Assembly: GCA_963769935.1 (NCBI GenBank)
Contig: CAVYNY010000009.1
Location: forward strand, 288,001 to 352,000
From: an uncultured delta proteobacterium
GTDB lineage: Bacteria > Desulfobacterota > Desulfobacteria > Desulfobacterales > JAFDCJ01
Reading direction: 5' to 3'
DNA: 64,000 nucleotides
Shown: positions 11,243-48,259 of the stretch, one piece after another
Position numbering within the stretch: position 1 is the first letter of the stretch
Layout of the letters: every line of letters begins with the position of its first letter
Position numbers and translations under genes: made by a program
Notes under the pieces: generated by a model
Databases searched by the model: none
What the model was told of the DNA's origin: nothing
Seen by the model: only the letters and a program-made list of their open reading frames with translations

Positions 11243-11824
11243 TTGCATGAGCTGTCACTTCACATTCTGGATATTGCCGAAAACGGCATTACCGCCGGGG
11301 CCGACTGTATTCAAATTCTGATCAATGAAAATCGAAAGGAAGATTTACTGACGATTGCCATTACGGACAACGGACGAGGTATGCCGGCTGAAAAACTCAA
11401 AAACCCCACCGACCCGTTTATTACTTCCCGCACGACCCGCAAGGTAGGAATGGGTCTGTCGCTGCTGGCCGCAGCGGCCGAGCGATGTGACGGAAGGCTT
11501 GCAATTGAGACTGAAGCCGGCCGCGGGAGCCGGGTTACGGCCACCTTCCGCTACACTCATATTGATCGCGCGCCCGTCGGGGATATGGCCGTAACGATAA
11601 CGACCTTAATTATGGGAAATCCGCGGGTTGATCTTGTTTACCGCCACATTATCGACGCCGAGGAATTCATGCTGGACACCAGGGATCTCAAAGAGGGATC
11701 GGCGGACAATTCCCTGGCGGATCCGGTCATCCTGCATCATTTATCCCAAAGTATCCGCAATTCTCTCAACCGGCTGGCATTAAAAGACGGCACGTCTGAA
11801 CCAACGGAGGATAGTCATGGCTAA
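11243..11824 (+). CDS. HATPase_c ATP-binding protein (hnd-cluster type)
   Basis: ELSLHILDIAENGITAGA, DNGRGM, DPFITSRTTRKVGMGL, HIDRAPVGD. Confidence 0.9.
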   Translation: MHELSLHILDIAENGITAGADCIQILINENRKEDLLTIAITDNGRGMPAEKLKNPTDPFITSRTTRKVGMGLSLLAAAAERCDGRLAIETEAGRGSRVTATFRYTHIDRAPVGDMAVTITTLIMGNPRVDLVYRHIIDAEEFMLDTRDLKEGSADNSLADPVILHHLSQSIRNSLNRLALKDGTSEPTEDSHG

Positions 11825-14148: not shown

Positions 14149-14458
14149 TGGGAAGGCGGAGGTTATGTCGAATCGTAGGAGTCAAATGGCAGAGCACAAC
14201 CGACTAGAATAAATCCCAAATTCCAAGCACCAAATAACAAAAAAATCTCAAATTACAATGATCAATGACCGAAACCGGCCAAAATAGGAATAAGCAACTG
14301 TATTTTTTTATGTCCAGACTTACATTCCTGAATGATAGAGGATCGCGTATTTATCTAAAGCAATGACTAAAACAGATTAAATCCCGTTTGGAATTTTGTA
14401 TTTGGGTCATTGTAATTTATCGGAAGAATCGTAGAAACCATTAAAAGCCCGGCATATA

Positions 14459-15136
14459 CTATACCTTTTCGTAGGGTGCGTGCCGGATAATTTCCCCTTC
14501 AATCAGGTAGATTACCTCTTCGGCGATATTGGTGGTGTGATCGGCCAGACGCTCAATGTGGCGGGTGATCAGCAGCAAATTGATTAAGTAGCCGATCTTA
14601 TCCGGATTTTCTTTCATCGCCTGTTTGATTTGATCGTAGGCTTCCCTTTTAATTTTGTCGACTTCATCATCCAGCATGACAACCTTGAAGGCGATTTCGG
14701 TATCCAGATTCACCAGGGCATCCAGGCTCATTTTCAGCATGTTTTGGGCTTTTTCCCCCATGGCTGAACAGTCGAAGAAAAAATCGGACAGATCCCGCTT
14801 GGCAATAACATCGATCCGCTCGGCAATGTTAACCGCCTGGTCGCCGATCCTTTCAAGGTCGTTGTTGATTTTGATGACCGCGATCAGAAACCTTAAATCC
14901 ACCGCCACGGGCTGATGCAGGGCGAGAATTTTAAGGCACTCCTCTTCGATTTCAACCTCCATCTCATCAATTTCATAATCGGTCTTAATTATCTGGTGCG
15001 CCAACTCGGCATCATTGTTATCGATTGCATTCAGAGCCATGCGCACTCTTTCTTCGACCATGGCGCCAAGGGAAAGAATCTGCTTTTTAATTTTCTCCAA
15101 TTCGCGGGAGAAATGCTTTCGAATCATTTTTTCCAT
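14459..15136 (-). CDS. phoU: Phosphate signalling protein PhoU
   Basis: LALHQPVAVDLR, NDLERIGDQAVNIA, ERLADHTTNIAEEVIY. Confidence 0.96.
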   Translation of the reverse strand: MEKMIRKHFSRELEKIKKQILSLGAMVEERVRMALNAIDNNDAELAHQIIKTDYEIDEMEVEIEEECLKILALHQPVAVDLRFLIAVIKINNDLERIGDQAVNIAERIDVIAKRDLSDFFFDCSAMGEKAQNMLKMSLDALVNLDTEIAFKVVMLDDEVDKIKREAYDQIKQAMKENPDKIGYLINLLLITRHIERLADHTTNIAEEVIYLIEGEIIRHAPYEKV

Positions 15137-15246
15137 GGATTTACACCTGTATGCCAATTAATGCGCCCTGAAAAGCAGCACATTCCGGGTTATATAGGGT
15201 TCTTGAAAACCTGAAGCAACTTCACTTTTAAGCGCCTATCACGGTT

Positions 15247-15300
15247 AACATGCCCATATTTCGTTAGAAAATTGTTAGGGCGGTATTAGGAATCGGCTAA
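15247..15300 (-). promoter_or_regulatory. Putative Pho box plus -10 upstream of phoU
   Basis: TTAGC/CTAAT/CTAAC/CTAAC at 11-bp period, 10 bp, CATGTT. Confidence 0.7.
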
Positions 15301-15558
15301 TTCGTTCCGAATGCACCTATATAGTTAGACTTTTAAAAATTAACACACTTTTTTTGAGAAGTCGGATTCCCCTGCAAAGTGATTTTCATCCATATACACT
15401 AAAACAGCCTCCCGCGGCTAATATATTTTTAAATAATTTTTCCGCACCCAAACATCTTAATTACCTCCTGTCTTCAAATATCCTCCAACCATCTTTAACA
15501 CCGCAAAAACGAGGAGTGGAAAAATTAGTGGAAAAATTAGTGAAAAACAAATGAAATC

Positions 15559-15590
15559 TTAATCATTGTCTAATCCCAGCGCCTTACAAT
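15559..15590 (+). promoter_or_regulatory. Putative Pho box plus -10 upstream of glycosyltransferase locus
   Basis: TTAAT-N6-CTAAT, 10 bp, TACAAT. Confidence 0.6.
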
Positions 15591-15672
15591 GAATTTGAAT
15601 TTTTAAGGAGGTGCCATGACTAACTCTGCTCCACCTTAGGCAGAGAACCAAACTGATATCAAAGCGATTGCT

Positions 15673-16712
15673 ATGAAAATTCTTTACGGGGTCCAAACCA
15701 CAGGCAACGGGCATATCAGCCGCTCCCGTGAATTGATTCGGGAGCTGAAAAAACTCGGCCACACCGTTCAGGTTCTGCTGAGCGGCCGCAAGCCGACGAT
15801 GCCGTCGTAGCTCAAAGACTTGAGCCCTATCAGAGATTGAAGGGACTGACCTTTTGTACCAATCGCGGCCGGCTCAAATATTTCCAAACCGCATTCAGTT
15901 TAGACTTTGTTCATTTTTATCGCGATATCACCTCATTTAATGGGGCCGGCTTCGATCTGGTAATTACGGATTTTGAACCCATTTCGGCCCGCATCGCCCG
16001 GCGCAAATCGCTTCCGTCCATCGGGGTGGGCCATCAATACGCATTTGTCCACGCTGTCCCATTGGGCGGCGACAACCCTCTGGCCCGTTTTGTCATCAAA
16101 AACTTTGCCCCGGCGGACCATCCGGTCGGACTGCACTGGCACCATTTCAACCGGCCGATTTTACCGCCGATCGTTCCCCAAAAAATCAACGGCAGCGATA
16201 AAAAAATCGACAACAAGATCCTGGTTTATCTGCCCTTTGAACAGCTGGATGATATCCAGGAGTTGCTCAAACCGTTTCGCCGCTGTGAGTTTTTTATCTA
16301 TCACGGCCTGCCCCGGGCCGAGGACCGCGGCAACCTGCATTTACGGCCTTACTCCTGCGCCGGCTTTCTAAATGATTTGATCGAAAGCAGCGGCGTAATC
16401 AGCAATGCCGGATTCGAACTGGCCAGCGAGGCCATGCATTTGGGAAAAAAAATTCTGGTCAAGCCCCTGGTCGGCCAGATGGAGCAAATCTCCAACGCCC
16501 TGGCCCTTACTTCCTTGAAACTGGGCATGGCCATGAACCGCTTGAACAGCGTCAGAGTGGCTCAATTTCTGGATGGGCCGGCCGTGACCCCCATCAAATT
16601 TCCCAATGTCGCCCGCATGATTGTCAAATGGATTGAGAGCGGCCAATGGGAGGATGTGGAAGGTCTGGCCAAGCTGGCATGGGAGCAAACGGTTTTGCCG
16701 GATATTGTATAG
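15673..16712 (+). pseudogene. MJ1255/VC2487-family glycosyltransferase, disrupted
   Basis: MKILYGVQTTGNGHISRSRE start; in-frame TAG at 15808-15810 and a frameshift at ~15820; rest has DLVITDFEPIS, SNAGFELASEA, KPLVGQMEQISNA. Confidence 0.8.
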
Positions 16713-16734
16713 AGGTTTCAGATGCTCCGTCTCC

Positions 16735-17060
16735 GACGGACCGCTGGCCTGAAAAACGGCCAATTTGATCAATAAAAGTTAACAATGAACATCGAACATC
16801 GAATGAAGGGATTCTATCGATTTAAATCGCGGTTGCAAACCGCTCCCACAAGAACTTATAATGAAGTTTCATACGAGCGCAACCACCGGCCTGAAAAGTT
16901 TACCCGCCTTGGGAGGGCGGCAGATCTGATCGAAAAGGAAACATAATATTTCACCGCGAAAACGCAGAAATCCGCAACGGCGGATTCCGAGCTTTCGCAA
17001 CGCAGTCAGGCGGGATGCATCGGCGTATAAAATGTGAAGTTGTTTTTGAGTGAGCCCTTA
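16735..17060. repeat. Cluster of repeat copies (family A inverted x2, REP, partial MITE)
   Basis: Matches to 785-846, 10381-10405 and 1963-2035. Confidence 0.75.
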
Positions 17061-17186
17061 GTGCCTTTATATTAGTCTGGAACTTGGTTTCGTCCCCTCT
17101 TATTTCGAAAGCCGGCCGCCGCGCTGGCCGGCGGGAGGCCTATCCAGAGGAATTTCATCCATTTCCCTCAAATCCAGGGGTGATTT

Positions 17187-17591
17187 TTGATGAGGGGGAA
17201 AAAAAGCGCATCGTTGTATGATCTGCCGCAGCGTCAATGTCTACTAGGGAACGAAGAACGCCATCAAGATAATTCCCTGGATATCGGGCGCAACGAAGTC
17301 ATTGCCATGATCAGACTCTCCGGCTGCGGCAAATCAACGTTCATCCCTGAAGTCATATTAATGCATGAGCCCTGTTCCGCCCTGGATCCTATTGCCACCG
17401 TTGTCATCGAAGATTTGATCGACGAACTGCGGACCCAGTATTCCATTGCCATCGTCACCCACTCCATGCAGCAAGCTTCCCGCGCTTCACAGCGCACGGC
17501 CTATTTTCATCTGGGCAATCTTATTGAAGTCGGACCCACCGAACGGATATTCACCCGCCCCAGGCACCAATTTTCACTTCGCGGTCCTTGA
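17187..17591 (+). pseudogene. pstB: pstB (phosphate ABC ATPase) remnant with internal deletion
   Basis: [19 protein letters not shown] joined directly to [40 protein letters not shown]; region between Walker A and Walker B absent. Confidence 0.85.
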
Positions 17592-17767
17592 CTTAACCAA
17601 TTCATTCCGTACTATTGGAGAAAGTTTAGTATTTTTTAGATGTCGATGAAGCTCGCGGACTGACCGAGCGCCGGGCCAGGTTCTGCGATTAAGAGTCAGT
17701 CACCAGTGTGTCTGCATCGGTTGAGTCGTAGAGCGTCCTAATTTCCCCCAAAATGAGGAGGTTTAAG

Positions 17768-18046
17768 ATGAAACTGTTCGGAGGCTGTTTAAAAACCGGT
17801 GGAGCCATGGCTATCGGAGCCGGTGTCTTGCTGTTGGCTCCCGTCATCATCCCGGCGGTGGCAAGTGTGTTGAGACCCGCAGCCAAAGCGGTTATCAAGG
17901 GCGGAATCCTGGCCTATGAAAACGCCCGCATCGCGGTGGCGGAAACCAAAGAAACCGTTGAAGACATTGCGGCTGAAGCCCGTTCAGAGATCGCGGCCGA
18001 CCATGAACAGCCGGCCAAAGCCAGCCTTAAAAAAGCAGCCAAATAA
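17768..18046 (+). CDS. DUF5132-like small membrane protein
   Basis: GAGVLLLAPVIIPAVASVLRPAAKAVIKGGILAYE...ETVEDIAAEARSE; RBS GAGGAGG. Confidence 0.75.
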   Translation: MKLFGGCLKTGGAMAIGAGVLLLAPVIIPAVASVLRPAAKAVIKGGILAYENARIAVAETKETVEDIAAEARSEIAADHEQPAKASLKKAAK

Positions 18047-18690
18047 ACGAATCGTTCACACTTGAAAATCGCGACATCAACATTCGGCGCCGCCTGTTTA
18101 CAAAAGGAAAAGGGTTCATAAAAAAGCCTTTGAGACATCTGACATCACGATGCGCATTGGCATATGACAATTTGAATTTGTTCGGGGAAATAAACCATAC
18201 CCTGCATTTAGGTCGGCCAGCTGATGGTCGATGCCGCCCGCTCCCGCGATGCCCGGGTAGGTGTCCGAGCTCGGCCAGACGGTAGACTGTAAACACGCGA
18301 AAGCACCCCACATCAGCAAGAATGTCTATCCCTGCTTCCAAAATAAGTGGGGAACGTGACGGAATTATTAGCGCCAGAAGGCGGAAATGCTGATTTTCGG
18401 TCTTAATCGTTTTTTCCGGCTTCTGGCGTTTGTTTAAAAAAAACCTGCCAAAATCATCTGGCAGGGCCTAATTTTTTTGATCTAATGCTGTTATGTCTTG
18501 AGTATCTTTATGCATCCCTGGTGAATGCCATTAAAGATATATAGCAGAAAGCACAACTTTAGACCTAATAATCAGAAATGATCATATCACAACTTTTTTG
18601 GAGGCTTCATTTTTGCCGATACGTTGGAGAAACCACAAGTTTTAGAACTGAGAAAAAGCTTTTGTTAATCGAAGAATAACTTTATGTTGA

Positions 18691-20589
18691 TTATTCAGGT
18701 AGCCCTGCCTTGCGCAGAGCAGCCACATAACGCTCTATATCAGCTTTATTCTTATAGGGGAGGGTCTTTGCATAATATTCAATAGAGAATTTAGGGTTGA
18801 TCCGGAGGACTTCCTTGGCTGCAGCGGAAGCCTCTGCATGTCGATCCAATGAACTATAACAGGCTGCGAGAAAAGCATGGGCGGGCAAGTAATCGGGGGC
18901 TCCCTGCAGAGCCTTTTTCCATGTGGCTATGGATTCATCAAGCTGCCCTGTCATGAAATAGGCACGGCCCAACCAGTGATAGAATATGACCGGTGGGAAT
19001 GGTTCGAGGCGTATGGCCTTCTTTGCCAATTCAATACTTTCATCCCACCTGCCTGAACAGCCGACGGCCCCGGCCAGAAAAGCATAATTCCCAGCCCCAT
19101 TAGGATTGAGGGCGATAGCCCGCTCCCCTTCAGCGATTGCCTTTTCATACTGACCTTGGAGAAAGTAAACGCCGCCAATCAATAGGTAAGCAAAGTCCGA
19201 GGTGTCATTCAGCTGAATCGCTTTTTGCGCATATTTCAGAGCCATTTTAATAGATTCGGCCCGAGACTCAACCCACCCAAACCTCGCATCGAACCAGTAA
19301 GTCCAACCTATAGCAGCATAGGCAAGATCATACTTAGGGTCCAGGGCAATGGCCTCCTCATATAATCGTCGCGCTGTGGCGTTGTCCTCTTTCGTGTACC
19401 GATAACTATAATCTATTGCTTGCAGAAATTTTTCCCAGGCTCTAAGATTCGTCGTCGTATTTTTATCCCACACGCGGGCTTGCTCACCCTCTGTTAGCTC
19501 CACCCGCAGGGCACTCGTGATCTTTATGGTAATGTCATCTTGAATCGCAAATATGTCTTTTGCTTCACGATCGTAGCCTTCCGACCAAATATGATGCCCT
19601 GTAGTCGCATCGATTAACTGGGCAGTGATCCGAACTCGGTCGGCTGTTCTCTGCACACTGCCTTCCAGCACGTACTTTACCCCTAAATCCTCTGCGACCT
19701 TTTGAACCTTCACGGGTTTCCCTTTGTAGGTAAAAACTGAACTGCGCGAGATCACAAATAGGCCTCGAAGCTTGGACAGTGTGCTGATGATCTGGTCGGT
19801 CAGCCCGTCGCTGAAGTAATCCTGTGCAGGGTCACCACTCATGTTTTCAAAAGGCAACACCGCAATAGAGGGCTTATCCGGTAATGGGTGCGCCATCCTT
19901 GCCACGGATGCCACCTCCACCTCGGAAGGCCGCAAATAAAAGTTCCAAATTGTTGCTATTGCAATCGCCCCAACTAAAACTGCTGCTATCCCAAAGGCGA
20001 TCTTTCGCCATTTTCTTTCCAATGTTTTTTTCGCTTTTACCACTCGATGAGCAGCTGCATCCGGAAACGAAAGCACCCTAAATACGCGGATAGGCCTTGT
20101 AATATTTTTAACCTGATGCTCTCCCAAATCCTCATATTCCAGCCCGAGCTTATTTTCCACCTGATCGTAAGCCCTGCCGGAAATGCAGATGCCCCCTGCT
20201 TCAGCCATCGCTTCCACGCGGGCTGTAATATTAACACCATCACCGTAAATTCGCCCTTCTTCCTCGATAACATCTCCGAGGTTGACCCCGATGCGAAACT
20301 GCATCCTTCGTTTTTCCAGCAGCTCAGTATTGCGTTCAGCAAGCTCACGCTGAATCTCCACAGCACAGTTTACTGCATCCACCACACTGGTAAACTCTGC
20401 CAGGATGTTGTCTCCCGGTGTGTCTATAACACGACCACGGTATTGCTGGACCAGATCATTAATTGCGGTACGGTAAACGGTTAGGGTGCGGACGGTAACT
20501 TCTTCATCGTCGTCCATAAGCCGGCTGTAACCTTGCACATCGGCACTGAGGATGGCGGCGAGCTTACGCTTAAAACCTGCATCTGCCAA
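18691..20589 (-). CDS. Class III adenylate/guanylate cyclase with TM, TolB-like and TPR domains
   Basis: RKLAAILSADVQGYSRLM, GDNILAEF, FRIGVNLGDV, GDGVN, PSIAVLPFENMSGD, TPR repeats. Confidence 0.92.
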   Translation of the reverse strand: MADAGFKRKLAAILSADVQGYSRLMDDDEEVTVRTLTVYRTAINDLVQQYRGRVIDTPGDNILAEFTSVVDAVNCAVEIQRELAERNTELLEKRRMQFRIGVNLGDVIEEEGRIYGDGVNITARVEAMAEAGGICISGRAYDQVENKLGLEYEDLGEHQVKNITRPIRVFRVLSFPDAAAHRVVKAKKTLERKWRKIAFGIAAVLVGAIAIATIWNFYLRPSEVEVASVARMAHPLPDKPSIAVLPFENMSGDPAQDYFSDGLTDQIISTLSKLRGLFVISRSSVFTYKGKPVKVQKVAEDLGVKYVLEGSVQRTADRVRITAQLIDATTGHHIWSEGYDREAKDIFAIQDDITIKITSALRVELTEGEQARVWDKNTTTNLRAWEKFLQAIDYSYRYTKEDNATARRLYEEAIALDPKYDLAYAAIGWTYWFDARFGWVESRAESIKMALKYAQKAIQLNDTSDFAYLLIGGVYFLQGQYEKAIAEGERAIALNPNGAGNYAFLAGAVGCSGRWDESIELAKKAIRLEPFPPVIFYHWLGRAYFMTGQLDESIATWKKALQGAPDYLPAHAFLAACYSSLDRHAEASAAAKEVLRINPKFSIEYYAKTLPYKNKADIERYVAALRKAGLPE

Positions 20590-20903
20590 AACGGCACCTC
20601 CGTTTTTAAGGTTTCAAACAGAGGAACTCATTATATGGATTACTCAAAAAAGCATAAAAATCAGATTAGAAATTGAACTTGATTCTGTAAATGCAAAACC
20701 GCTTCAGGTCAAATGGAATTGGAGCATCGTAAATAGGTTGCGTATTTATATCCAAATCGATGGACTTTTTCAATCAAAATTAGGGATTCTGGAAACTGGT
20801 GATTCATTGAGATAATATGCAAAAACAACACCGCCCAAAACTGTGATATCATAATGGATATCACAGATCTGCTCACTTTTTGTAAAGGTTGATAATTTGA
20901 AAT

Positions 20904-20936
20904 AAAAGGACAGGGTTATTTGCTGACCCTGCCCTT
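20904..20936 (-). terminator. Rho-independent terminator
   Basis: AAGGACAGGGTTA-TTTGC-TGACCCTGCCCTT hairpin with minus-strand T tract. Confidence 0.55.
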
Positions 20937-21023
20937 GAGGTTAGTGTTCTCTCCACCTTAATAAATCGACCTGATTCAATAACAAAAATGAGGAATTATT
21001 TTGCACTTAGAAATCCGTTACCT

Positions 21024-21344
21024 CTATGGTGTCTTTTTGCCTATTGATTCCATTGCTTCCTCAATTGTCATCCAAGTGCGAACCTCATAATAGAAACCTT
21101 CAATGTCAAAAAATTCTGCCATAAATTTGGCCGTATAAGCTGCAGCTTCTTCATATTTGCCTGGATGGATTTTACTGGCTGATAACACTCTTAGCCCACA
21201 CTTGTCACTTGTGACTGCCGATTCAACCAGCGGAGTGACCAGACCTTCAGGTCGAGGGTATTTTTCAAGTGCCTTGAGCCAAGCAGCTACAACTTCTTTG
21301 TTTTTAGAGGCGGGATATTGGCTTTCAACAAATATAATTGGCAT
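21024..21344 (-). CDS. Hypothetical protein
   Basis: 106-aa ORF with strong RBS AGGAGG and own terminator. Confidence 0.8.
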   Translation of the reverse strand: MPIIFVESQYPASKNKEVVAAWLKALEKYPRPEGLVTPLVESAVTSDKCGLRVLSASKIHPGKYEEAAAYTAKFMAEFFDIEGFYYEVRTWMTIEEAMESIGKKTP

Positions 21345-22711
21345 AGGAACCTCCTTTCTTCAGTTTTTGGAAAGATCGAATTGAAGTGATATTTCAACTG
21401 AACTCCTAACAGGAAATGGATAAAATCCCGTCAGGAGCAAAATAGGCACAATTTGAGAGGGTTCTCCATCGTAACTTCACCATAATGTTAAGCTAATGTT
21501 CGGTGGAAACCAATATTTTTTCAGTAGAAGTCTTTAAAATGTGAAATTCATCGAGATCGCAGAAGCGCAGATGGTTGATACCGGTCAGATTCAGGAGTAG
21601 ATGGTGATTAAGATATGAAACTGTTGTCTTTTGATTATTCTATAGATTTTCTAATGTCAAGAAAAATTAATAAGTACTACTATGTAGTAATTACAGCGGG
21701 CATCTTTGGATTGACATATCTTGCCATTATATGAATTTCGAAAACTATCGAACTATTTAAAGATATAATCCGCATACCAAAAAGTATTTGACCCTGTCAA
21801 TTAATGAATAATATTCAGACCAATTGGTAATAATCATATTCGTTGCCGCCTATTTGTTTGAGTGATAATCGCCTTTCCAGCTTCATTAACCCTCTAATTT
21901 TCCTATTTTCTAAATATAGGATATTGTAACTGGTTTTTAATCAATTTTTGGCTCTTTCAGACGCTTTTGGTAGGTCGATCCGATATTGACCAGTGCAACA
22001 GCAAGATTTTTATGCAATCGCCCTATTTTGGCCCTTTGGTGGATTATCAGTCACTAAGCCACCATAGAAAATTGAATGAAGCCTTCAGAGATTGCAAAAA
22101 AAAATGTCACAGGCAAAAAACCTGTGACATTTTCTAAATCCCTATTTTCAAGTGAAAATATTAGTTCTGAAGGTTTTCGAATTGGTCTATTAATTCCAAT
22201 GCCTTTTGAACAGGTTGGGAACCATTGCGGCAGGAGAACCCGGAAGCTGTGCCTGGCTTATGTGTTTGAGGATGTTTTTTCCTTGTGACGGTTAAGCATG
22301 GAATACGGAAGTACTTTTGAAACCGTGGCAACCGGCGCGCGCCCGGTCAACCTCACCGGTCCAGCGGTTCCTCGGATTGTCATGGAGGCGACGGCAATAG
22401 CCGTCTAAAGGCCTGTTCCAAATAGCTTCTTTGCCACGTTCACAATGGATTCATTGACAACTATTATGAGAAGTTATTTTCTAGTGAGTCATTGGGCGGC
22501 TGCATTCTTTTGCGGTGCTGTTTTGCCGCTTTTGGAAATCGTTGGCCTGGCTTCTTCACAAAAGCACTTTTGCTCGACCAAATATCGAGCGGACTTGACA
22601 CGAATTGAAAAGCAATCCTTTGGACAGAGATCTCTTGACAGAACAAAAACAATGCCAAAATATAGAGCATTCTGCCCCAGAGGACCAGTTTTTTAATCAT
22701 AGAATAATGCA

Positions 22712-23518
22712 ATGAAGAGAGCCGACTTTGTAATTCGTCCCCATAAAACAGAGATAAAAGCCGCCGGCGGAAAGCTGAGGCTTCGGGTCATGACCTACAA
22801 TATCCACAGCTGCGTCGATCAAAACCGAACCGTTAATTTCGACAAGTTTGTTGGAATCATTGAGAAACGCCAAGCCGATATTATCGCACTGCAGGAAGTC
22901 GACGTCCAGAAGCCTTTCGACCAAAACCGGAATCAGGCCGGTATGATTGCAGATAAATTAAAGATGGATCATATTTTCTTTCCGGCCGAACATTCCAGCC
23001 TGCGCGCTTTCGGACTTGCCATCCTGAGCCGCTATACATTAACGGCATCCCATGGCGGCCTTCTACCGCAGTTATATGCCCGGCTCAAGCCAAGAAAGCG
23101 GGCCGCAGTTCGGGCAACCCTTCAGACGCCGGCCGGACCGCTGCATATTGTCAATGCGCATCTCAGCCTTTTTAAGCTGGAGCGCCGCGGGCAGTTAAAA
23201 AACCTTCTGGGCCGTGACTGGCTGGCGGGGGTGCCGGCCGGGGAGCCGGTTATCTTTTGCGGTGATCTGAATGCCGGGCCTTTATCCAAAACATACCGCA
23301 CCCTCTCCCGTCATTTAACCGACGTTCAAAAGGAATTAAAGATCCTGAAAGGAGCTGCCACCCAGCCGACTTTTCACTCCAGAAGTCCTCTGTTTCGGAT
23401 TGATCATATTTTTGTCTCTCAGCATCTGCGAACCATCCAGGTGGAAGTCACGAATTCCCCGGATACACGGACGGCTTCCGATCACTTGCCGCTGACGGCG
23501 GATCTTGCGTTATTATAG
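22712..23518 (+). CDS. Endonuclease/exonuclease/phosphatase family protein
   Basis: VMTYNIH, DIIALQEVD, NAHL, CGDLNA, RIDHIF, ASDHLP. Confidence 0.93.
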   Translation: MKRADFVIRPHKTEIKAAGGKLRLRVMTYNIHSCVDQNRTVNFDKFVGIIEKRQADIIALQEVDVQKPFDQNRNQAGMIADKLKMDHIFFPAEHSSLRAFGLAILSRYTLTASHGGLLPQLYARLKPRKRAAVRATLQTPAGPLHIVNAHLSLFKLERRGQLKNLLGRDWLAGVPAGEPVIFCGDLNAGPLSKTYRTLSRHLTDVQKELKILKGAATQPTFHSRSPLFRIDHIFVSQHLRTIQVEVTNSPDTRTASDHLPLTADLALL

Positions 23519-23558
23519 AAAAAATTTATTTGCCATAATCGAAAAAATTTTTGCATCG

Positions 23559-23590
23559 CTAATAAAATCCTAACAATCCTTTTGTATCCT
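23559..23590 (+). promoter_or_regulatory. Putative Pho box plus -10
   Basis: CTAAT-N6-CTAAC, 10 bp, TATCCT. Confidence 0.6.
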
Positions 23591-23753
23591 TTTCTAGGCA
23601 ATCGAGACCGGCTTTAAAGCGGCCGATGATGTTTCCGCAAGCGATCTTCATCTTTATGCGGATGTCGACCTGATCAGGTTAAAATCCGGGCTTTGAATTA
23701 ATAAAGTGTATTTTCACAAAAGATCGCCAGAAACGTGAAAGGGAGAGCGCGAT

Positions 23754-24044
23754 ATGATTTCAGCTAACTGCGATATTCGCGAATTCATTTCTGAGCTGGA
23801 AAACAAGGATTTTTTCGAAATGATCTATTTGCTGGATAAGGAGGCGACGGAGGCTGAAAGACAATTATTTAATTCCAGGAGCAAAACGTGTGATGGACAA
23901 ATTTGCGGGTCCGAATACGTGAGTAACCTGAAAAACCTTATCTTCTATCTCAGGTACGGTGCCAGGCCCAATGGATTGCAAAAGGAGTATATTCGCCTTT
24001 TAGATTCAGTTTGCGCCAAAAATGTTCATCCACCGGCGCATTGA
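23754..24044 (+). CDS. Hypothetical protein
   Basis: 96-aa ORF, RBS GGGAG, followed 6 bp later by the next gene. Confidence 0.75.
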   Translation: MISANCDIREFISELENKDFFEMIYLLDKEATEAERQLFNSRSKTCDGQICGSEYVSNLKNLIFYLRYGARPNGLQKEYIRLLDSVCAKNVHPPAH

Positions 24045-24050
24045 GGCAAC

Positions 24051-24527
24051 ATGAAAACCGCTGGCAAAGATCTGCCCTCCATTATTTTACCGCCGCCGCT
24101 CATTTTTTTCGTGTTGCTGGGTGTCGGTTTTTTGCTGGATTATCTTTTTCCATTAAAATATTTCAGACTGCCGTGGACACCCCGGGTTATCGGCAGCGGC
24201 ATCCTTTTTCTGATCTCCGGGTATCTGGCAATGGGATCGATCAATGTGTTGCTGCGCAATAAAACGCCGTATAACCCGTCAAAACCTGCCATAAAAATTG
24301 TTGGTCAGGGCCCGTTCCGGCTTTCACGAAACCCGATGTATCTTGCGCTCCTGCTCCTGCTTGCAGCCGCTGCGGTTTTCACCGGTTCGATCTGGCTTTT
24401 TCTGGCCGTACCGCTGCTTTTGATTGTTTTGGACATCACTGCCGTCAAACCGGAAGAATCATATCTGGAGCGCCATTTCGGCAGCCGGTATCTGGCATAC
24501 AAGGCCAAAGTCAGACGGTGGCTTTAA
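24051..24527 (+). CDS. Isoprenylcysteine/phospholipid methyltransferase (ICMT/PEMT) family protein
   Basis: GPFRLSRNPMYL, EESYLERHFG, YKAKVRRWL; hydrophobic. Confidence 0.9.
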   Translation: MKTAGKDLPSIILPPPLIFFVLLGVGFLLDYLFPLKYFRLPWTPRVIGSGILFLISGYLAMGSINVLLRNKTPYNPSKPAIKIVGQGPFRLSRNPMYLALLLLLAAAAVFTGSIWLFLAVPLLLIVLDITAVKPEESYLERHFGSRYLAYKAKVRRWL

Positions 24528-24595
24528 AATCCGCAGCATCAACCCGGCTGAAGGTATATTCCTGGGGCGTTATTGTCGTTTTAATTCACTCATTT

Positions 24596-24638
24596 CTAAC
24601 ATCATCCTAGTAAAAGTCTAAAGCATCAATCCTACTAT
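24596..24638 (+). promoter_or_regulatory. Putative Pho box plus -10
   Basis: CTAAC/CTAGT/CTAAA at 11-bp period, 10 bp, TACTAT. Confidence 0.62.
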
Positions 24639-24721
24639 TATTCCGGCCGCAAACCCTTATAGCACCATCAAAATATATTCGGAAATTCTATAAAACTGAG
24701 CTATTCGGCTGAGGTTTAAGT

Positions 24722-24907
24722 ATGCAATTTAAAGTATCATGCTTTGAAGTCAAAAAATTGGGAGAGGATGAGTGGCAGGAAGCCTCCGAGAGAATGGTCC
24801 TGGCAAAATTGGCCGAATGCTTTGACCCGCTTACCCCGATCCTGACGAAAATGATGGAAGGCAATGAGATCGTTGCACAGCGAGAAATATATCGATTCAG
24901 ATGTTAG
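24722..24907 (+). CDS. Small hypothetical protein
   Basis: 61 aa, RBS GAGG. Confidence 0.65.
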   Translation: MQFKVSCFEVKKLGEDEWQEASERMVLAKLAECFDPLTPILTKMMEGNEIVAQREIYRFRC

Positions 24908-24927
24908 GCTTAGAAAGGAGAAAAAAT

Positions 24928-25119
24928 ATGGGCGAATTGTTTCTGCAGCATGATGCATTCACCTATTTATTTGATACTGATTTGCTTAAACTCTACCGGT
25001 TGCAGGGCCGTCAGTCTGTAGAGATCAATAATCCTGAAACGGTACGCAATGTGCGGCTCTATTCTTCTGAAATCAGCCGGGAGCGGGCGTTCAAGATGGC
25101 CGAAGGATGTCATAACTGA
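24928..25119 (+). CDS. Small hypothetical protein
   Basis: 63 aa from ATG 24928, RBS AAGGAG. Confidence 0.7.
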   Translation: MGELFLQHDAFTYLFDTDLLKLYRLQGRQSVEINNPETVRNVRLYSSEISRERAFKMAEGCHN

Positions 25120-25223
25120 TTTTTCATTCTAACCATGACCAATGCAATGAAAATAGTGGAAGTCGGCCAGGTCGTTTAATTTCGCAATGAGAAGAATGAT
25201 TGAAGATTTCCAGGCCGTGAAAT

Positions 25224-25832
25224 TTATGGTTCGATCCGTGTCATTTTGGGCAAGGCGGTCAGAACATCCTCACAGGTAAAGAAAATATCAATACCCATAG
25301 GGTGCAGAAATGATATCTGCCGCCACTGACACCAGAAGATATCCGCAACGTCCTTAAGATCCAGGCGAGAATTCCTGTTCCCGGCGACATTGGAATTTTG
25401 ATGGTCCGCCACCGGGTAAATATCCTCCACCTGTACAACTATCGTCGTCGCTTTTTCGCAATGCTCATATCGGCCGACCCTGAAATATTCAAGGGGCGGC
25501 ATGGCGGCCGGCCTGGTAATAATCGCGAATTTCGCCATGCAGGGTTCGGTCACAACACTGCTTCCACAGCCGGACTGCAGCCAGCCGATTGCCGGGTTCC
25601 TCCAGTCGATATCAGTCCAGACGGGCGTCTCATCATCGAGCAGGGTCAGACAGGTGGCGGCAGAGGCTGAATTAAATACTGCCGGCGCATACGGATACTC
25701 CCGGATTGTAACCAGCCGGCCGGGATGTTCCATAGCATCGAGAATCGCTCTAAAGGCCTGATGTGATTCGACAGCGGGATCATCAGATCCATTCCTCCAC
25801 TGATTAAGCGCCCGTGAGTGGTTCATTTTCAT
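25224..25832 (-). CDS. phnH: PhnH-like (C-P lyase system) protein
   Basis: SHQAFRAILDAMEHPG, AATCLTLLDDETPVW, ATTIVVQV, PMGIDIFFTC...ALP. Confidence 0.85.
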   Translation of the reverse strand: MKMNHSRALNQWRNGSDDPAVESHQAFRAILDAMEHPGRLVTIREYPYAPAVFNSASAATCLTLLDDETPVWTDIDWRNPAIGWLQSGCGSSVVTEPCMAKFAIITRPAAMPPLEYFRVGRYEHCEKATTIVVQVEDIYPVADHQNSNVAGNRNSRLDLKDVADIFWCQWRQISFLHPMGIDIFFTCEDVLTALPKMTRIEP

Positions 25833-25893
25833 GTTCCTCTATACATGGGGGGAAACGCACTTTTTCCGGGGGAGTTGCTCGTCACCCTGCCTG

Positions 25894-25938
25894 AATCTAT
25901 AGGATATGCCTGTTAGGGGGATATTAGCGAATCATTAG
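25894..25938 (-). promoter_or_regulatory. Putative Pho box plus -10 upstream of phnH
   Basis: CTAAT/CTAAT/CTAAC at 11-bp period followed by TATAGATT. Confidence 0.7.
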
Positions 25939-25959
25939 AAATGAATGAAAAATGTAGGC

Positions 25960-26295
25960 CTGTTAGCCGGTTGGCCCGTTGGCCGGTTGGCCCGTTGGCC
26001 GGTTGGCCCGTTGGCCGGTTGACCCGTTGGCCCGTTGGCCCGTTGACCCGTTGGCCCGTTGGCCCGTTGGCCCGTTGGCCCGTTGACCCGTTGGCCCGTT
26101 GACCCGTTGGCCCGTTGACCAGTGGGCCCGTTGACCCGTTGACCCGTTGGGCCCGTTGACTCTCGTTGACCCGGTGTGGCCTGTTGACTGGTTGTTCTCT
26201 TGGCTGGTTGCCCTGCTTCAATACACCGGCAACCGGCGAACAGGCACACGGGACAACCGGCCAACCGGCGCACGGGCCAACCGGCAAACCGGCTA
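25960..26295. repeat. 8-mer tandem array (CCGTTGRC, about 25 units) plus shorter inverted arm (about 9 units)
   Basis: Directly visible; lies between phoR stop and phnH promoter. Confidence 0.93.
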
Positions 26296-28069
26296 ACTGA
26301 TAGGCAGGTGGATGGTGAAGGTGCTGCCCTTGCCGAGCGTGCTGTCCACGGTGATATTGCCGCCATGGGCCTGGGCAATGTGTTTGACAATGGCAAGTCC
26401 GAGACCGGTGCCGCCCATTTTGCGGCTGCGCGCTTTGTCCACCCGATAAAATCTTTCAAAAAGCCGGGGCAGATGTTTTTTCGCAATGCCGATGCCCTGA
26501 TCTTCAACACTGATCTGAATTTCCGAGCCGTTCCGCCAAGCTTTAAGATGAATGACACTCTCGGGTTCGCTGTATTTAATGGCATTGTCCAGCAGGTTAA
26601 CCATCGCCTGCTCGAGCAGTGAGCTGTCAAATTTGGCTGAAATCTGCTCATCGCCGGCGATGGCAACGGTGATATTTTTTTCCTCGGCCTTCGGACGGCA
26701 TAGTTGCATTACAGAGCGAAAAACATTGCCGATGTTTCCCTCTTCTAAGCTTAACGGTCTTGCCTTCATCTTCCTGCTCGATTCTGGAAAGAGCGAGCAG
26801 ATCCTCGACGATGGAGCTCAGGCGGTCCACATGTTTTTGAATGATGCCCAGAAATCGCCTGGCCTCCTCCGGATTGTCGACACTGCCCTGGTGCAGGGTT
26901 TCAACAAAGCCCTTGATAGCCGTCAGCGGGGTTTTGATCTCATGCGAGACATTGGCCACAAAGTCGCGCCGCATGTTCTCCAGGCGTCTGAGTTGGGTGA
27001 CGTCATTGAATACCACCAGGGTTCCGATATGGTCTTTATTGGCGTCCAGCAGAGGGGAGCTCTGCAGGTGCAGCGTCTTTTCGCCCTTATGATACAGACC
27101 GATGTCGTCTTCTTTGGGAACCTTGCTGGATATGGCCCGGCCGACAAACTGCTGCAGCACCGAATTGCGAATGACTTCCTGCAGGTCCCGGCCCTGGTAC
27201 TTTTCGGGGTCGCAGTCGAAAAAATCGGTTGCCGCTGCATTCATGTTTATAATCCTTTCCTCATTGTCGACGGCAATGACGCCTTCCAGCATGCTGGCCA
27301 GCACGGTCTCCAGTTCATTGTGCTGGCTGACAATAGTTTTGATGCGACGGTCAAGCTGGGCGGCCATCTGGTTCAGGGCCTCGGCCAGACTGGCCAATTC
27401 TTCGGAATCCGGCGCCGCCAGGCGGTGGGTTAAATCACCGTCCGCGAAATGATCTGCGCCCTTTTTCATTTCTTCGATGGGCCGGCTGATGCGGCGTGAA
27501 ATCAACAAACTGATGCCGGCGGCCATCAAGGCAATTAAAAGACCGCCGAGTGCGATTTTGATCTGGATCGACTGCAGCTCCCGGTCAATCGATGTCGTGG
27601 GCAGGGACGCTCTTATTACCCCGTAGGTGGCATTACCCTGCTGCAAAGGGACAGCGACATACATCATTTTTTGCTTGAGTGTTTTGCTGTAGCGCCGGGA
27701 CAGGCCGGTATGGCCTTTAAGTGCTGTTGCAATTTCAGGCCGCTCGGCATGATTATCCATCACCCGGGGTGATTCACGGGAGTCGCCCACGACTTGCCCG
27801 TCGGGCAATATGACGGTGATGCGGGTGGCGGATTTTTCGCCGATTTCCTTGCAGACGGCGTCCACTGCGGCAGCATCCAAAGGCGTCAGGTGGGCGGTGA
27901 TTTGCTTTTCGACCAGTACGGCGCGGATTTTCAGATCCGCTGCGGTCTGGTCCATGAAAAAATGGTGCAGCGAACTGGAGGCATACCAGCTGACCGCCAA
28001 TACCGAGAGCACCGTGATCAGCAGATATGAAGGAAACAGCTGCCAGATCAGTCTTTTTTTCCTATTCAT
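26293..28069 (-). CDS. phoR: PhoR-like sensor histidine kinase (HAMP-PAS-HisKA-HATPase); one frameshift at ~26746
   Basis: RRDFVANVSHEIKTPLTAIKG, NLLDNAIKY, RLFERFYRVDKARSRKMGGTGLGL split over two ORFs. Confidence 0.88.
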
Positions 28070-28760
28070 TGTTTTCTTTGAACCGATATCCGACACCTCG
28101 GACGGTTTCAATGTACCGGCTGGATGGACCCAGTTTTTTTCGCAATCCCACGATTTGGACGTCCACGCTGCGGTCGGTAACCGGGTAGTCGTCACCGCGC
28201 ACGGCATCCACAATGTGGCTGCGGGTAAACACCCACCCCGGTCGCCGGGCCAGAAGATACAGCACCTGAAACTCGGTATATGTCAAATCAACAGCCTGAC
28301 CGGAGACCAGAACACTGCGCCGGCCGAGATCTATCTCCAGATCATAGATCCGAAGCATGGATACATCTCCCTCATCCGGCTTGCCGGTTTTGCGGCGCAG
28401 GATGGCCCGCACTCTTGCAATCAGCACCCGGGGGCTGAACGGCTTGGTCACATAGTCATCGGCGCCCAGTTCCAGACCGGTGACAATGTCGGCCTCCTCA
28501 CCCTTGGCCGTCAGCATCAGAATCGGAAAATTCCCGGTCTTTGGGTCGCTTTTTAATTTTTTGGCCACATCCAGTCCGTCGATACCGGGCAGCATGAGAT
28601 CGAGAACGACCAGATCAAACACTTCTGCCCGGGCCTTTTTCAGTGCATCTTCCCCGGTCAACGCCCCGGTAACCTGATACCCTTCTTTTACCAGATTGTA
28701 TCTGATCAGCTCGAGGATATCCTCCTCATCTTCAACCACGAGAATCCGTTCTTTTGGCAT
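28062..28760 (-). CDS. phoB: PhoB/PhoP-like OmpR-family response regulator
   Basis: LDLMLPG, GADDYVTKPFS, RSVDVQIVGLRKKL, IETVRGVGYRF; paired with phoR near phoU. Confidence 0.88.
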   Translation of the reverse strand: MPKERILVVEDEEDILELIRYNLVKEGYQVTGALTGEDALKKARAEVFDLVVLDLMLPGIDGLDVAKKLKSDPKTGNFPILMLTAKGEEADIVTGLELGADDYVTKPFSPRVLIARVRAILRRKTGKPDEGDVSMLRIYDLEIDLGRRSVLVSGQAVDLTYTEFQVLYLLARRPGWVFTRSHIVDAVRGDDYPVTDRSVDVQIVGLRKKLGPSSRYIETVRGVGYRFKENNE

Positions 28761-28826
28761 CGCCTTGTCTCACCGTTTTGACAATGGAATTTATCTTGCT
28801 TTGTAATTTATTTTTTCCCGGTGAGC

Positions 28827-28880
28827 AATCTATTTCTTTATTGTTATCATAACGTTAGATTGCGGTTAAATTTGTGATAG
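28827..28880 (-). promoter_or_regulatory. Putative autoregulatory Pho box plus -10 upstream of phoB
   Basis: CTATC/TTAAC/CTAAC/ATAAC at 11-bp period, 10 bp, TAGATT. Confidence 0.72.
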
Positions 28881-45600: not shown

Positions 45601-48259
45601 TCAATTCTGCCCGTCCAGCACTCGCCGGATAACATGTGCCAGTTCGTGAGTGGTTATCGGTTTTAATAGAAATGCCCGGATGCCCGCAGCTTTGATGCTT
45701 TCGCCGTTGATATTTTCGCTGAAGCCGGTGCTTAAAATGATAGGGAAATCGGGGCGTATCGCCAAAAATTCCCGAGCCAGATCAGTACCCGTCATATTGG
45801 GCATGGTCATATCAGTCACAACCAGATCGAAATCATCGGCTTTGATCTTGAAAAGCTCCAGCGCCTCGATGCTGCTGGTGCGGGTCGTAACCTTGTAGCC
45901 CAGCTGCTCCAACATTTGCCGGCCGATATCCACCAGCGGTTTTTCATCGTCGATCAAAAGAACGTGTTCGTCCCCGACGGGCAGCGGTCCTTTGATCTTG
46001 GCTTCAGGCCGGCTGGGTTTTTTGGCAATAGGAAAGTACACATGAAACGCGGTGCCCTTATCAGGCTCGCTGTCGACTTTAATAAATCCGCCATGCCCCT
46101 TGACGATGCCGTCAACGACGGCCAGCCCCAGGCCGGTTCCCTCCTCCTTCGCTTTAGTTGTAAAAAAAGGATCAAAGATTTTCTCCATCACATCGGCGGA
46201 CATGCCTTGGCCGGTATCACATACTGTCAACAGCCTGATAGGCTCCCGAAGCGGCTCCCGGCATAACTATCCGCCAGTGAGGCCGTCAAATCAACAGAAT
46301 ATCCTTCAGGCTCACCGAAAGCAGACCGCCATTTTCCCGCATGGCATGGGCCGCATTGGTGCACAGATTCATCAGGATCTGGTGAATCTGGGTCGGATCC
46401 GCAATCACGGTGTCGTCGCTGTCAACTCCTGGGCGAATTTCAATCGTCGCCGGCAGGGATGCCCTCAGCAGCTTGAGCACTTCCTTTACGATCAGCTTGA
46501 TTTGAACCGGCTGCATCTTCTGTTCGGTCTGGCGGCTGAACGTCAGGATCTGTTTGACCAAATCTCGGGCACGTACACCGGCATTTAATATCTCCTGCAG
46601 GTGATCTTTCAACTTCTCATCATTTTGAACCTTGTCAAGCGCAATCTCCGAATACCCGATGACCGCCGATAAAATGTTGTTGAAGTCATGGGCGATACCG
46701 CCGGCCAAGGTGCCGATGGCCTCCATCTTCTGGGCCTGGCGCAGCTGTTTTTCCCTCCTGATTTCATCGGTGACATCCCGTTTGACGGCTACATAATGGG
46801 TGATTTTGCCGGCCGCGTTTATCACCGGTGAAATGGTTGCATCTTCTTCGTACAGGCTGCCGTCTTTTCTTCGATTGACGAAATGCCCTTTCCACATGCT
46901 GCCTTGTTCGAGATTGGCCCACATGGATTGGTAAAAGGATCGGTCATCTTTGCCGCTTTGAAGGATTCTGGGGTTTTGCCCGATGAGCTCTTCCTTTGTA
47001 TATCCGGAAATTTTTTCGCAGATCGGGTTGACATATTGGATGCTGCCGTTCAGATCGGTTATCAATACGCTCTCGGAAGCATGCTCGATGGCGGCCGCCA
47101 GCAGAATGCGCTCCGCTTCCGCTTTTCTGCGCTGGCTGATATCGCGGAAAAAAGCGAGTGTGACCGTATCGCCCTGGTAGGAGGTCTGGGCAATGGAGAC
47201 CTCGATGAAAATCATGTCGCCATTTTTTTTGATTCCCCTGCATTCGTATCTTGACGGCACCGGGCCGTTTTTGGCCCTGCGGTCCACAATCTCGCGCACC
47301 CAGTCTCGGTCATCGGGATGCACCAACTGCACAGAGGGGCGGTTTAAAATCTCTTCGGCCTGCGCATAACCGAAAATTTCAAGATATTTTGGATTGACAT
47401 AAACATGAATATCACCTTTCAGAATCGCAATGCCGTCATTGGAGTATTCTATGGCGGTTCGGTAGCGCTCCTCGGATTCCGCCAAGGCTTGCTCGGCCCG
47501 AATGCGCTCGGTTTCATCAGTGTAAATGGCCACGATCTCCCCGGTAGGGAGCTTGTAGACATAGTTGTCGCGCCAGCCGGATGTCCGCTGACCCTCGTAG
47601 TAAAATACAGGGGGTTTTTCCGGTTTTCCGGTCGACCACACTCGCTGAAAGACCTCAAATAGCCCGCATTTCTTTATCCCGGCAAAGACTTCTGAAACCG
47701 GCTTGCCGATAGCTTCATGGCGCCTGATATTTTCTATCTTTTCGCAGCCCTTGTTAACATCAACAATTATGAAATCGTTGCTATCATCGATCGCTTTATA
47801 AATGGTAATGCCGTTGTTGGTGTGATCAAATATCCCCTTGAACCTTGCTTCACTTTCCCGCAATTCAGTTTCGGTTTTTTTTCGTTCAACCGCATACTGA
47901 AGAGTGCTGGTTAGCAACCATCTGTTCAATTTGCTTTTCACAAGGTAATCCTGCGCCCCAGCCTGTACGGCCGAAATCCCTGTTTTTTCGTCATCGTTGC
48001 CGGTAAGTACGACGATCGGCATGGCGGACACGGCTTCCCTGACTGCCCGGAGCGTGTCGAGACCGTCGCTGTCGGGCAGATTCAGATCCAGCAACACCAA
48101 ATTCACGAAATCGCGCCCGAGATTATGGATTGCCTCAGACAAGCGGGTCACCCAGACGATTTCAAAGCTCATCGTCTCGGTTTGCGACAGCATCTCCCGG
48201 ATGAGGTCGGCGTCCCCGGGATTATCTTCAACCAGGATTAACTTCAGATGGGTGTTCAT
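45601..48259 (-). CDS. Receiver-multiPAS hybrid histidine kinase; indels at ~46235-46300
   Basis: AHDFNNIL, MNLCTNA, DPFFTTK, GTGLGL, C-terminal receiver. Confidence 0.85.

Follow-up and report, generated by a model that had tools for sequence, protein, structure and literature searches.

The stretch analysed here (the window) is 64,000 nucleotides of contig CAVYNY010000009.1 from an uncultured delta proteobacterium, whose genome assembly spans 8.0 Mb in 41 contigs and is 96.7% complete. The window holds a gene cluster with phoU, a glycosyltransferase gene of the MJ1255/VC2487 family, a pstB remnant, a gene for an EEP-family enzyme, a 96-amino-acid (aa) open reading frame (ORF) followed by a PEMT/ICMT-type methyltransferase gene, two small ORFs, phnH, phoR, and phoB. 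Six promoters in this cluster carry tandem CTAA(C/T) units. We put the probability at just under nine in ten that these arrays are 11-bp-period boxes covering the −35 region in promoters that respond to phosphate starvation, and likely the sites where the adjacent PhoB, phosphorylated by PhoR, activates transcription.

Each array lies on the strand of its downstream gene. In the phoU promoter (15247..15300, minus strand), the units TTAGC, CTAAT, CTAAC, and CTAAC begin at 15300, 15289, 15278, and 15267 (unit span, 15300-15263), and a −10-like CATGTT occupies 15252-15247. The phoB promoter (28827..28880, minus strand) likewise has four units, CTATC, TTAAC, CTAAC, and ATAAC at 28880, 28869, 28858, and 28847 (unit span, 28880-28843), with TAGATT at 28832-28827. 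Three units each are found upstream of the ORF at 24722 (promoter 24596..24638, plus strand; CTAAC, CTAGT, and CTAAA at 24596, 24607, and 24618; TACTAT at 24633-24638) and of phnH (25896..25938, minus strand; CTAAT, CTAAT, and CTAAC at 25938, 25927, and 25916; unit span, 25938-25912). The glycosyltransferase promoter (15559..15590, plus strand) has TTAAT and CTAAT at 15559 and 15570 followed by TACAAT at 15585-15590, and that of the ORF at 23754 (23559..23590, plus strand) has CTAAT and CTAAC at 23559 and 23570 followed by TATCCT at 23585-23590. An earlier note on this DNA had read the six arrays at these positions with an 11-bp period and had placed a −10-like hexamer exactly 10 bp past the last unit at five of them; both observations held. 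The sixth promoter, that of phnH, has TATAGA at +10 and TAGATT at +12. The consensus given in the note, (C/T)TAA(C/T), is matched literally by 13 of the 18 units, while the other 5 deviate. Its gene names were confirmed, with the caveats that the glycosyltransferase gene is frameshifted and that ORFs 23754 and 24722 match no family. The first base is C in 14 of the 18 window units, T in 3, and A in 1. None of the 18 has the initial G of the E. coli and Desulfovibrio type of Pho box, and the T-first form of Bacillus PhoP and cyanobacterial SphR (TTAAC/TTHAC) accounts for no more than those 3.

Across the genome, two units matching the literal pattern occur 132 times at period 11, compared with 118 to 165 times at periods 8 to 17. 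As there is no excess at period 11, the pattern alone is uninformative, and significance is carried by an array model. In the window, 7 of the 9 literal matches fall inside the cluster, and one of the other two is at 29032. A matrix trained on the six sites themselves, with approximate −10 weights, gave 66 matches over 18 bits at period 9 versus 19 at period 11. Because of these many period-9 matches, we adopted a fixed 57-bp matrix built from 43 promoters (phoB, phoU, pstS, pstC, and porin) of other genomes in the class whose PhoB has Gly or Ser at residue 201. This model found six sites between 14.2 and 29.1 kb, none across the window's remaining 49 kb, and 13 genome matches above 15 bits at period 11, compared with 1 at period 10 and 0 at period 12. 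Although the unenriched literal pattern and the near-background scores (12 to 14 bits) of the two-unit glycosyltransferase and ORF 23754 sites would suit chance matches in AT-rich intergenic DNA, we reject that explanation for the set as exceedingly improbable, since 200 block shuffles gave a mean of 0.045 sites (maximum, 1), the period controls were nearly blank, and both weak sites are kept in relatives (at 7 of 8 glycosyltransferase loci and, for ORF 23754, in L241).

The fixed matrix returned 21 loci above 12 bits in the genome, among which the window sites rank 1, 2, 7, 8, 15, and 19: phoB at 34.2 bits (rank 1), phoU at 30.3 (rank 2), ORF 24722 at 20.9, phnH at 19.7, ORF 23754 at 14.2, and the glycosyltransferase at 12.3 (rank 19). 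Ranks 1 and 2 are not independent of the training set, which contains orthologous phoB and phoU promoters; the other four window sites are. Outside the window, rank 3 goes to a site that precedes a solute-binding protein gene fragmented by stop codons (L247:1133-1820, G000:C35), rank 4 to a second ugp-like ATP-binding cassette (ABC) operon, rank 5 to ugpB (C10:289156; 558 bits versus an NCBIfam cut-off of 411), and rank 6 to pstS (C11:4997). Rank 9 has no assigned gene, rank 10 is a hydrolase gene, and rank 11 is a tyrosine-phosphatase-family gene. With the six-site matrix, three non-window loci exceeded 23 bits (the hydrolase, pstSCAB-phoU, and a ugp-like ABC operon) and the next scored 19.7; its lower matches (pheT, cupin, DUF5995, and glnD) look like noise and were set aside. 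The earlier note had predicted that a weight-matrix scan would reach pstS and that the box marks a regulon. We recovered pstS as the second-best non-window locus with the six-site matrix and as sixth of 21 with the fixed one, which together with the bona fide ugpB supports the regulon. Arrays stand at pstSCAB-phoU, ugpB, phoU, phoBR, and phnH. The note had also expected phoA, phoX, and ppk as targets; searches of this genome, 96.7% complete, did not find phoA, phoX, or ppk1, nor phoD.

Two of the non-window arrays are worth describing for themselves. The strongest, second-best of all arrays with the six-site matrix, has three near-perfect units (L007:9070-9150; G000:C9:179105, minus strand). 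A gap of 279 bp separates it from the start of the hydrolase gene, and its target may be a short ORF or an RNA that has no annotation. The other, at 15.5 bits with TATCTT at +10, is followed after 565 bp by the gene for a PF13350 tyrosine-phosphatase-family protein with a likely export signal (L016:2791-3750, G000:C34), a candidate secreted phosphatase in a genome without PhoA, PhoX, or PhoD matches.

PhoB orthologs were present in 27 of 40 relatives. Their phoB promoters score at least 18 bits at 9 of 11 same-genus loci and at 7 of 16 same-order loci, and for six of the other nine same-order loci a CTAA array was found at pstS, at the locus itself or in its genome. When phoB lies within an operon, the array is usually at pstS instead. 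The phnH, ORF 23754, and ORF 24722 boxes are kept in L241 (18.5, 23.7, and 20.8 bits, respectively), the only one of six inspected loci of relatives to contain these genes, and L240 has a 22.2-bit box upstream of its homolog of ORF 24928. When arrays were picked without a −10 term, a YAnnnT hexamer lay exactly at +10 in 31 of 64 pho promoters and at +21 in 13, with at most 7 at any other position. In the phoB promoter of E. coli, CATAAT follows GTCAT at a distance of 10 bp. With register, period, and the +10 hexamer shared, the promoter geometry is canonical. Separately, arrays were seen at Porin_5-type porin genes (L021, L022, L198, L206, and L293), which are candidate phosphate-starvation porins.

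The regulator encoded at 28062..28760 (minus strand) consists of a receiver and a Trans_reg_C domain, and its best family is the PhoB family TIGR02154 (236 bits). The phoR kinase gene is downstream, orthologs adjoin pst or phoU genes, and the closest named homolog is a protein of a Desulfobacterales metagenome-assembled genome (69%). Sites of OmpR-family regulators share the 11-bp tandem form, and five additional OmpR-type DNA-binding domains are found in this genome (six in all), so one of these might read the boxes, alone or jointly with PhoB. We consider this very unlikely, since the only one of the six with an array upstream is 28062-28760 (34.2 bits versus at most 1.9 for the others) and the box shifts with the PhoB subfamily. 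Among Verrucomicrobiota, a PhoB of the same clade, at 57 to 59% identity, is present in all five genomes whose pst box is CTAAC, whereas genomes with GTAAC or GTCAC there have no PhoB of this clade.

We compared the box with those of known Pho systems. The Desulfovibrio vulgaris PhoB (DVU1083) box, (c/t)GT(n)AC, has in common with the arrays the phylum (as judged from relatives), the 11-bp period, the TAAC core, and phoB, pstS, and phoU-type targets, but its unit is GTAAC rather than CTAAC, a change of the first base from G to C, and the arrays here have two to four units. In D. vulgaris, PhoB sites come as GTAAC/GTCAC pairs with an 11-bp period, an electrophoretic mobility shift assay having validated one of them (PMC3333781, Table S7; PMC6456213), and none of the 13 string matches listed in the PMC3333781 supplement is a CTAAC or CTAAT PhoB site. 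The E. coli PhoB-PhoR system (CTGTCAT; PDB 1GXP) shares the 11-bp units, a −10 hexamer ten bases past the last X-T-N-A-Y unit, the phoBR autoregulation arrangement, and the pst and ugp targets; it differs in its GTCAT unit, and no phoA was found in the genome studied here. The register and −10 geometry of the box match those of E. coli GTCAT, and a single G-to-C change separates its unit from GTAAC, so we regard it as a variant of the Pho box and not as a new kind.

Boxes with T in the first position are known from Bacillus subtilis PhoP, TT(A/T/C)ACA in four copies (PMC11870197), and cyanobacterial SphR, CTTAACCT in three copies (PMC1906773); both have 11-bp units and the T-A-A-C core. The Streptomyces coelicolor PhoP box, GTTCACC, has in common an 11-bp direct repeat at pho genes (PMC4415409). 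Bacteroides fragilis PhoB binds pstC (PMC3547664), mycobacterial PhoP provides a cryo-electron microscopy example of a regulator recruiting polymerase over the −35 region (PMC11825685), and variation of the PHO-box consensus with regulator contacts has already been stated in a review. A search of one literature library, without subscription papers or RegPrecise, returned no paper on a CTAAC Pho box or on a PhoB residue-base pattern of the kind below. Joyce and Havranek reportedly described specificity codes for winged-helix proteins in 2018, which may bear on novelty.

The window PhoB and E. coli PhoB have 93 identical residues over 229. In E. coli numbering, the recognition helix here reads S194, V197, Q198, V200, and G201, with T194S, H198Q, R200V, and R201G relative to E. 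coli, while V197, R203, K204, T217, and R219 are kept. In the E. coli PhoB-DNA crystal, Arg201 hydrogen-bonds a guanine, and the contacts to thymines come from Thr194 and Val197 (PMC3973317). The Arg201 that goes with the E. coli and Desulfovibrio type of box is thus a Gly in the window regulator. We tallied units at 85 pho-context loci with the first base left neutral, and 56 of them could be classed. By residue 201, the first base was C 91, T 37, A 11, and G 8 for Gly; C 15, A 3, and T 2 for Ser; G 52, T 19, and C 2 for Arg; T 19, A 1, and G 1 for His; T 9 and C 2 for Asn; T 3 and C 1 for Lys; and T 3 for Ala. From forty further loci, drawn from Spirochaetota, Verrucomicrobiota, and three genomes of other groups, 7 more rows could be classed; in two of these, Arg goes with a majority of T. 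Over 80 regulators, 7 of whose rows were hand-labelled, the prevailing base was C in 31, G in 2, T in 1, and tied in 4 of the 38 with Gly/Ser; G in 25, T in 2, and tied in 1 of the 28 with Arg; and T in 9, C in 1, and tied in 4 of the other 14. In this data set, which does not extend to B. subtilis PhoP and cyanobacterial SphR, T-first boxes pair with His or Asn201.

For ten genomes, we predicted residue 201 in advance from the pst boxes, and nine predictions were correct. The CTAAC genomes had Gly or Ser in four of five cases, with Asn in the fifth, of the same clade; the G-box genomes had Arg in all four; and the T-box genome had His. In three of the five G- or T-box genomes, the best match was at 40 to 43% identity, which leaves its identity as PhoB unproven. 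A same-order genome with an Arg201 PhoB (L126/L129) has GTAAC. The two Bacillota loci read were L275, with TTTAC/TTAAT at pstC, and L295, with no array, and neither locus includes PhoB. Judged from the sequences, the C box is a trait of one PhoB subfamily, with Gly or Ser at 201, that spans Desulfobacterota, Verrucomicrobiota, and others. The earlier note had called the box non-canonical and lineage-specific. Both terms overstate the case, the unit differing at a single base from the validated box of D. vulgaris and being near the Bacillus and cyanobacterial ones, and the box tracking a regulator subfamily across phyla while a genome of the same order has GTAAC. One verrucomicrobial genome (G216) has two Gly201 PhoB copies (L285 and L296), the second with T/G units in its own promoter.

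Several points weigh against the reading of the arrays as PhoB boxes or against a residue-base code. The regulator scores below the TIGR02154 cut-off of 296 bits. The cluster is partly decayed, and some boxes may front dead genes. Among the remaining loci of the 21, several have no evident phosphate link, although annotation there is partial. The hydrolase at C9:177723-178826, a Tat-exported NAPE-PLD-like protein (4QN9, E = 1e-45; metallo-beta-lactamase fold), was rejected as a conserved regulon member: its −10 is poor, and none of the 9 orthologs with enough upstream DNA to score has the array (in 2 others, the upstream DNA is too short). The tally excludes 29 of the 85 pho-context loci, in which no array could be scored. 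In trees built without the helix columns, where distant regulators from a contig scan served only as outgroups, all C-box regulators fall in one clade (Shimodaira-Hasegawa-like approximate likelihood ratio test support of 85 with 39 rows and 99 with 33). Co-evolution of residue and base as a statistically shown code was rejected, with 2 independent contrasts and a sign test p of 0.5 to 1. Exceptions include Gly201 with GTAAC beside the −10 (L183 and L187) or with TTAAC (L182), Asn201 with CTAAC (L299/L287), and Arg201 with mostly T (L256 and L259). Actinobacterial loci have the Streptomyces-type TTCAC core although their regulators, encoded beside phoU, keep Arg201, which counters a strict code.

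How C came to be the first base can be explained in two ways. In one, PhoB binds but does not read the C: loss of Arg201 merely relaxed constraint on that base, and the C goes back to a single fixation in the clade's ancestor, passed on by descent. The single clade without independent origins fits this, as does glycine, which has no side chain for reading a base. So does the spread of first bases, with C in 106, T in 39, A in 14, and G in 8 of 167 Gly/Ser units, compared with C in 2 of 73 at Arg loci. On the other hand, C is kept across non-homologous promoters (three pstS types, phoU, phoB, porin, PAP2-glycosyltransferase, ugpB, and the small ORFs) in several phyla, a persistence that needs selection for C, direct or indirect. 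We hold relaxation to be rather unlikely; it bears on the code alone and leaves the reading of the arrays as Pho boxes intact. The other explanation is that residue 201, with 198 and 200, is a three-state switch that sets the first base (Arg for G, His or Asn for T, and Gly or Ser for C), and that entire regulons were rewired to CTAAC by a widespread Gly/Ser subfamily, which occurs in Desulfobacterota, Verrucomicrobiota, some Planctomycetota, and one gammaproteobacterial contig. A causal role of residue 201 in the choice of first base is hypothetical but agrees with the crystal contact, and we advance the switch tentatively, at somewhat less than even odds.

The genes behind the boxes are in varied condition. 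phoU (14459..15157, minus strand) scores 211 bits to TIGR02135 (cut-off, 130), with a likely ATG start at 15136. The glycosyltransferase-type two-unit promoter precedes, in relatives, a 175-aa PAP2 phosphatase gene (PF01569) and then the glycosyltransferase gene; here, the phosphatase is a 7-codon stub (15616..15639, plus strand) with about 550 bp gone. In blastn, window 15530-15619 matches 694-783 of L160, and window 15673-16682 then matches 1333-2343. The glycosyltransferase gene (15673..16712, plus strand) has a frameshift near 15810-15820, where near-identical contigs of runs X1 and X3 match the window with no gaps. Genus relatives have a pst operon between phoU and phoBR, of which only the pstB end is left (17187..17591, plus strand; TIGR00972 positions 163-237 only; 82% to the pstB end of L240 and L241). 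A separate pstSCAB-phoU operon with a PRK10918-type PstS (G000:C11:4960-9730) carries a CTAA array, and the genus-typical PstS had no tblastn match in this genome at 1e-12. It is possible that the C11 operon replaced the resident transporter and that the regulon link was retained.

The 96-aa ORF, which with its methyltransferase gene spans 23754..24527 (plus strand), has an ortholog in L241; the ORF belongs to no known family and had no usable match in a protein atlas search. The two small ORFs of 61 and 63 aa (24722..25119, plus strand), likewise of no known family, have homologs in L241 and L240. phnH (25224..25832, minus strand; TIGR03292, 111 bits, cut-off 91.5) stands alone, phnJ not being found in the genome, and either has a role outside a full carbon-phosphorus lyase or is a remnant. 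The phoR-type kinase gene (26293..28069, minus strand) encodes sCache, HAMP, PAS, and HisKA domains, with the HATPase in another frame owing to an extra base near 26746-26747, upstream of the HATPase. Since the extra base is absent from contigs of three of four runs (X1, X2, and X6), it is likely an assembly error; X6 is an RNA run whose contigs derive from a relative and have no bearing on expression. Between phoR and phnH (25957-26297) are 8-bp tandem arrays, GGCCCGTT in 25 copies and ACCGGCCA in 9, of a length that varies among run contigs. Short multi-copy elements lie at about 14210-14420 and at 16770-17065, with high contig depth and many loose ends. Further kinase genes (11243-11824, 45601-48259, and 54660-57417) look split or truncated, which suggests more indel errors or decay.

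In E. coli, PhoB dimers over the −35 region recruit the sigma-70 polymerase. By extension from E. coli and Desulfovibrio, PhoR would phosphorylate the window PhoB, which would bind as head-to-tail dimers with one unit per subunit, replace −35 recognition, recruit sigma-70 polymerase, and activate the array-bearing genes; boxes at phoB and phoU would provide autoregulation. The co-occurrence of Gly or Ser with the C box suggests that the subfamily lost the Arg201 guanine contact, its boxes having C for G at that base.

The arrays offer a usable motif for phosphate-starvation regulons of sediment sulfate reducers and bacteria of the Planctomycetes-Verrucomicrobia-Chlamydiae (PVC) group, whose CTAAC boxes would likely be missed by E. 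coli-type matrices demanding G. They point to candidate regulon members of unknown function, namely, ORFs 23754, 24722, and 24928 and the operon of PAP2 and MJ1255-family glycosyltransferase genes. By analogy with described systems (PMC5193443 and PMC11181052), this operon is a candidate for phosphorus-sparing lipid remodelling. Protein-DNA specificity could also be tested cheaply in this system, by setting a single residue swap against a single base swap. If residue 201 does act as a switch, the helix sequence would make Pho regulons of uncultured anaerobes readable and would bring to light further members, among them PAP2-glycosyltransferase operons and small ORFs of unknown function.

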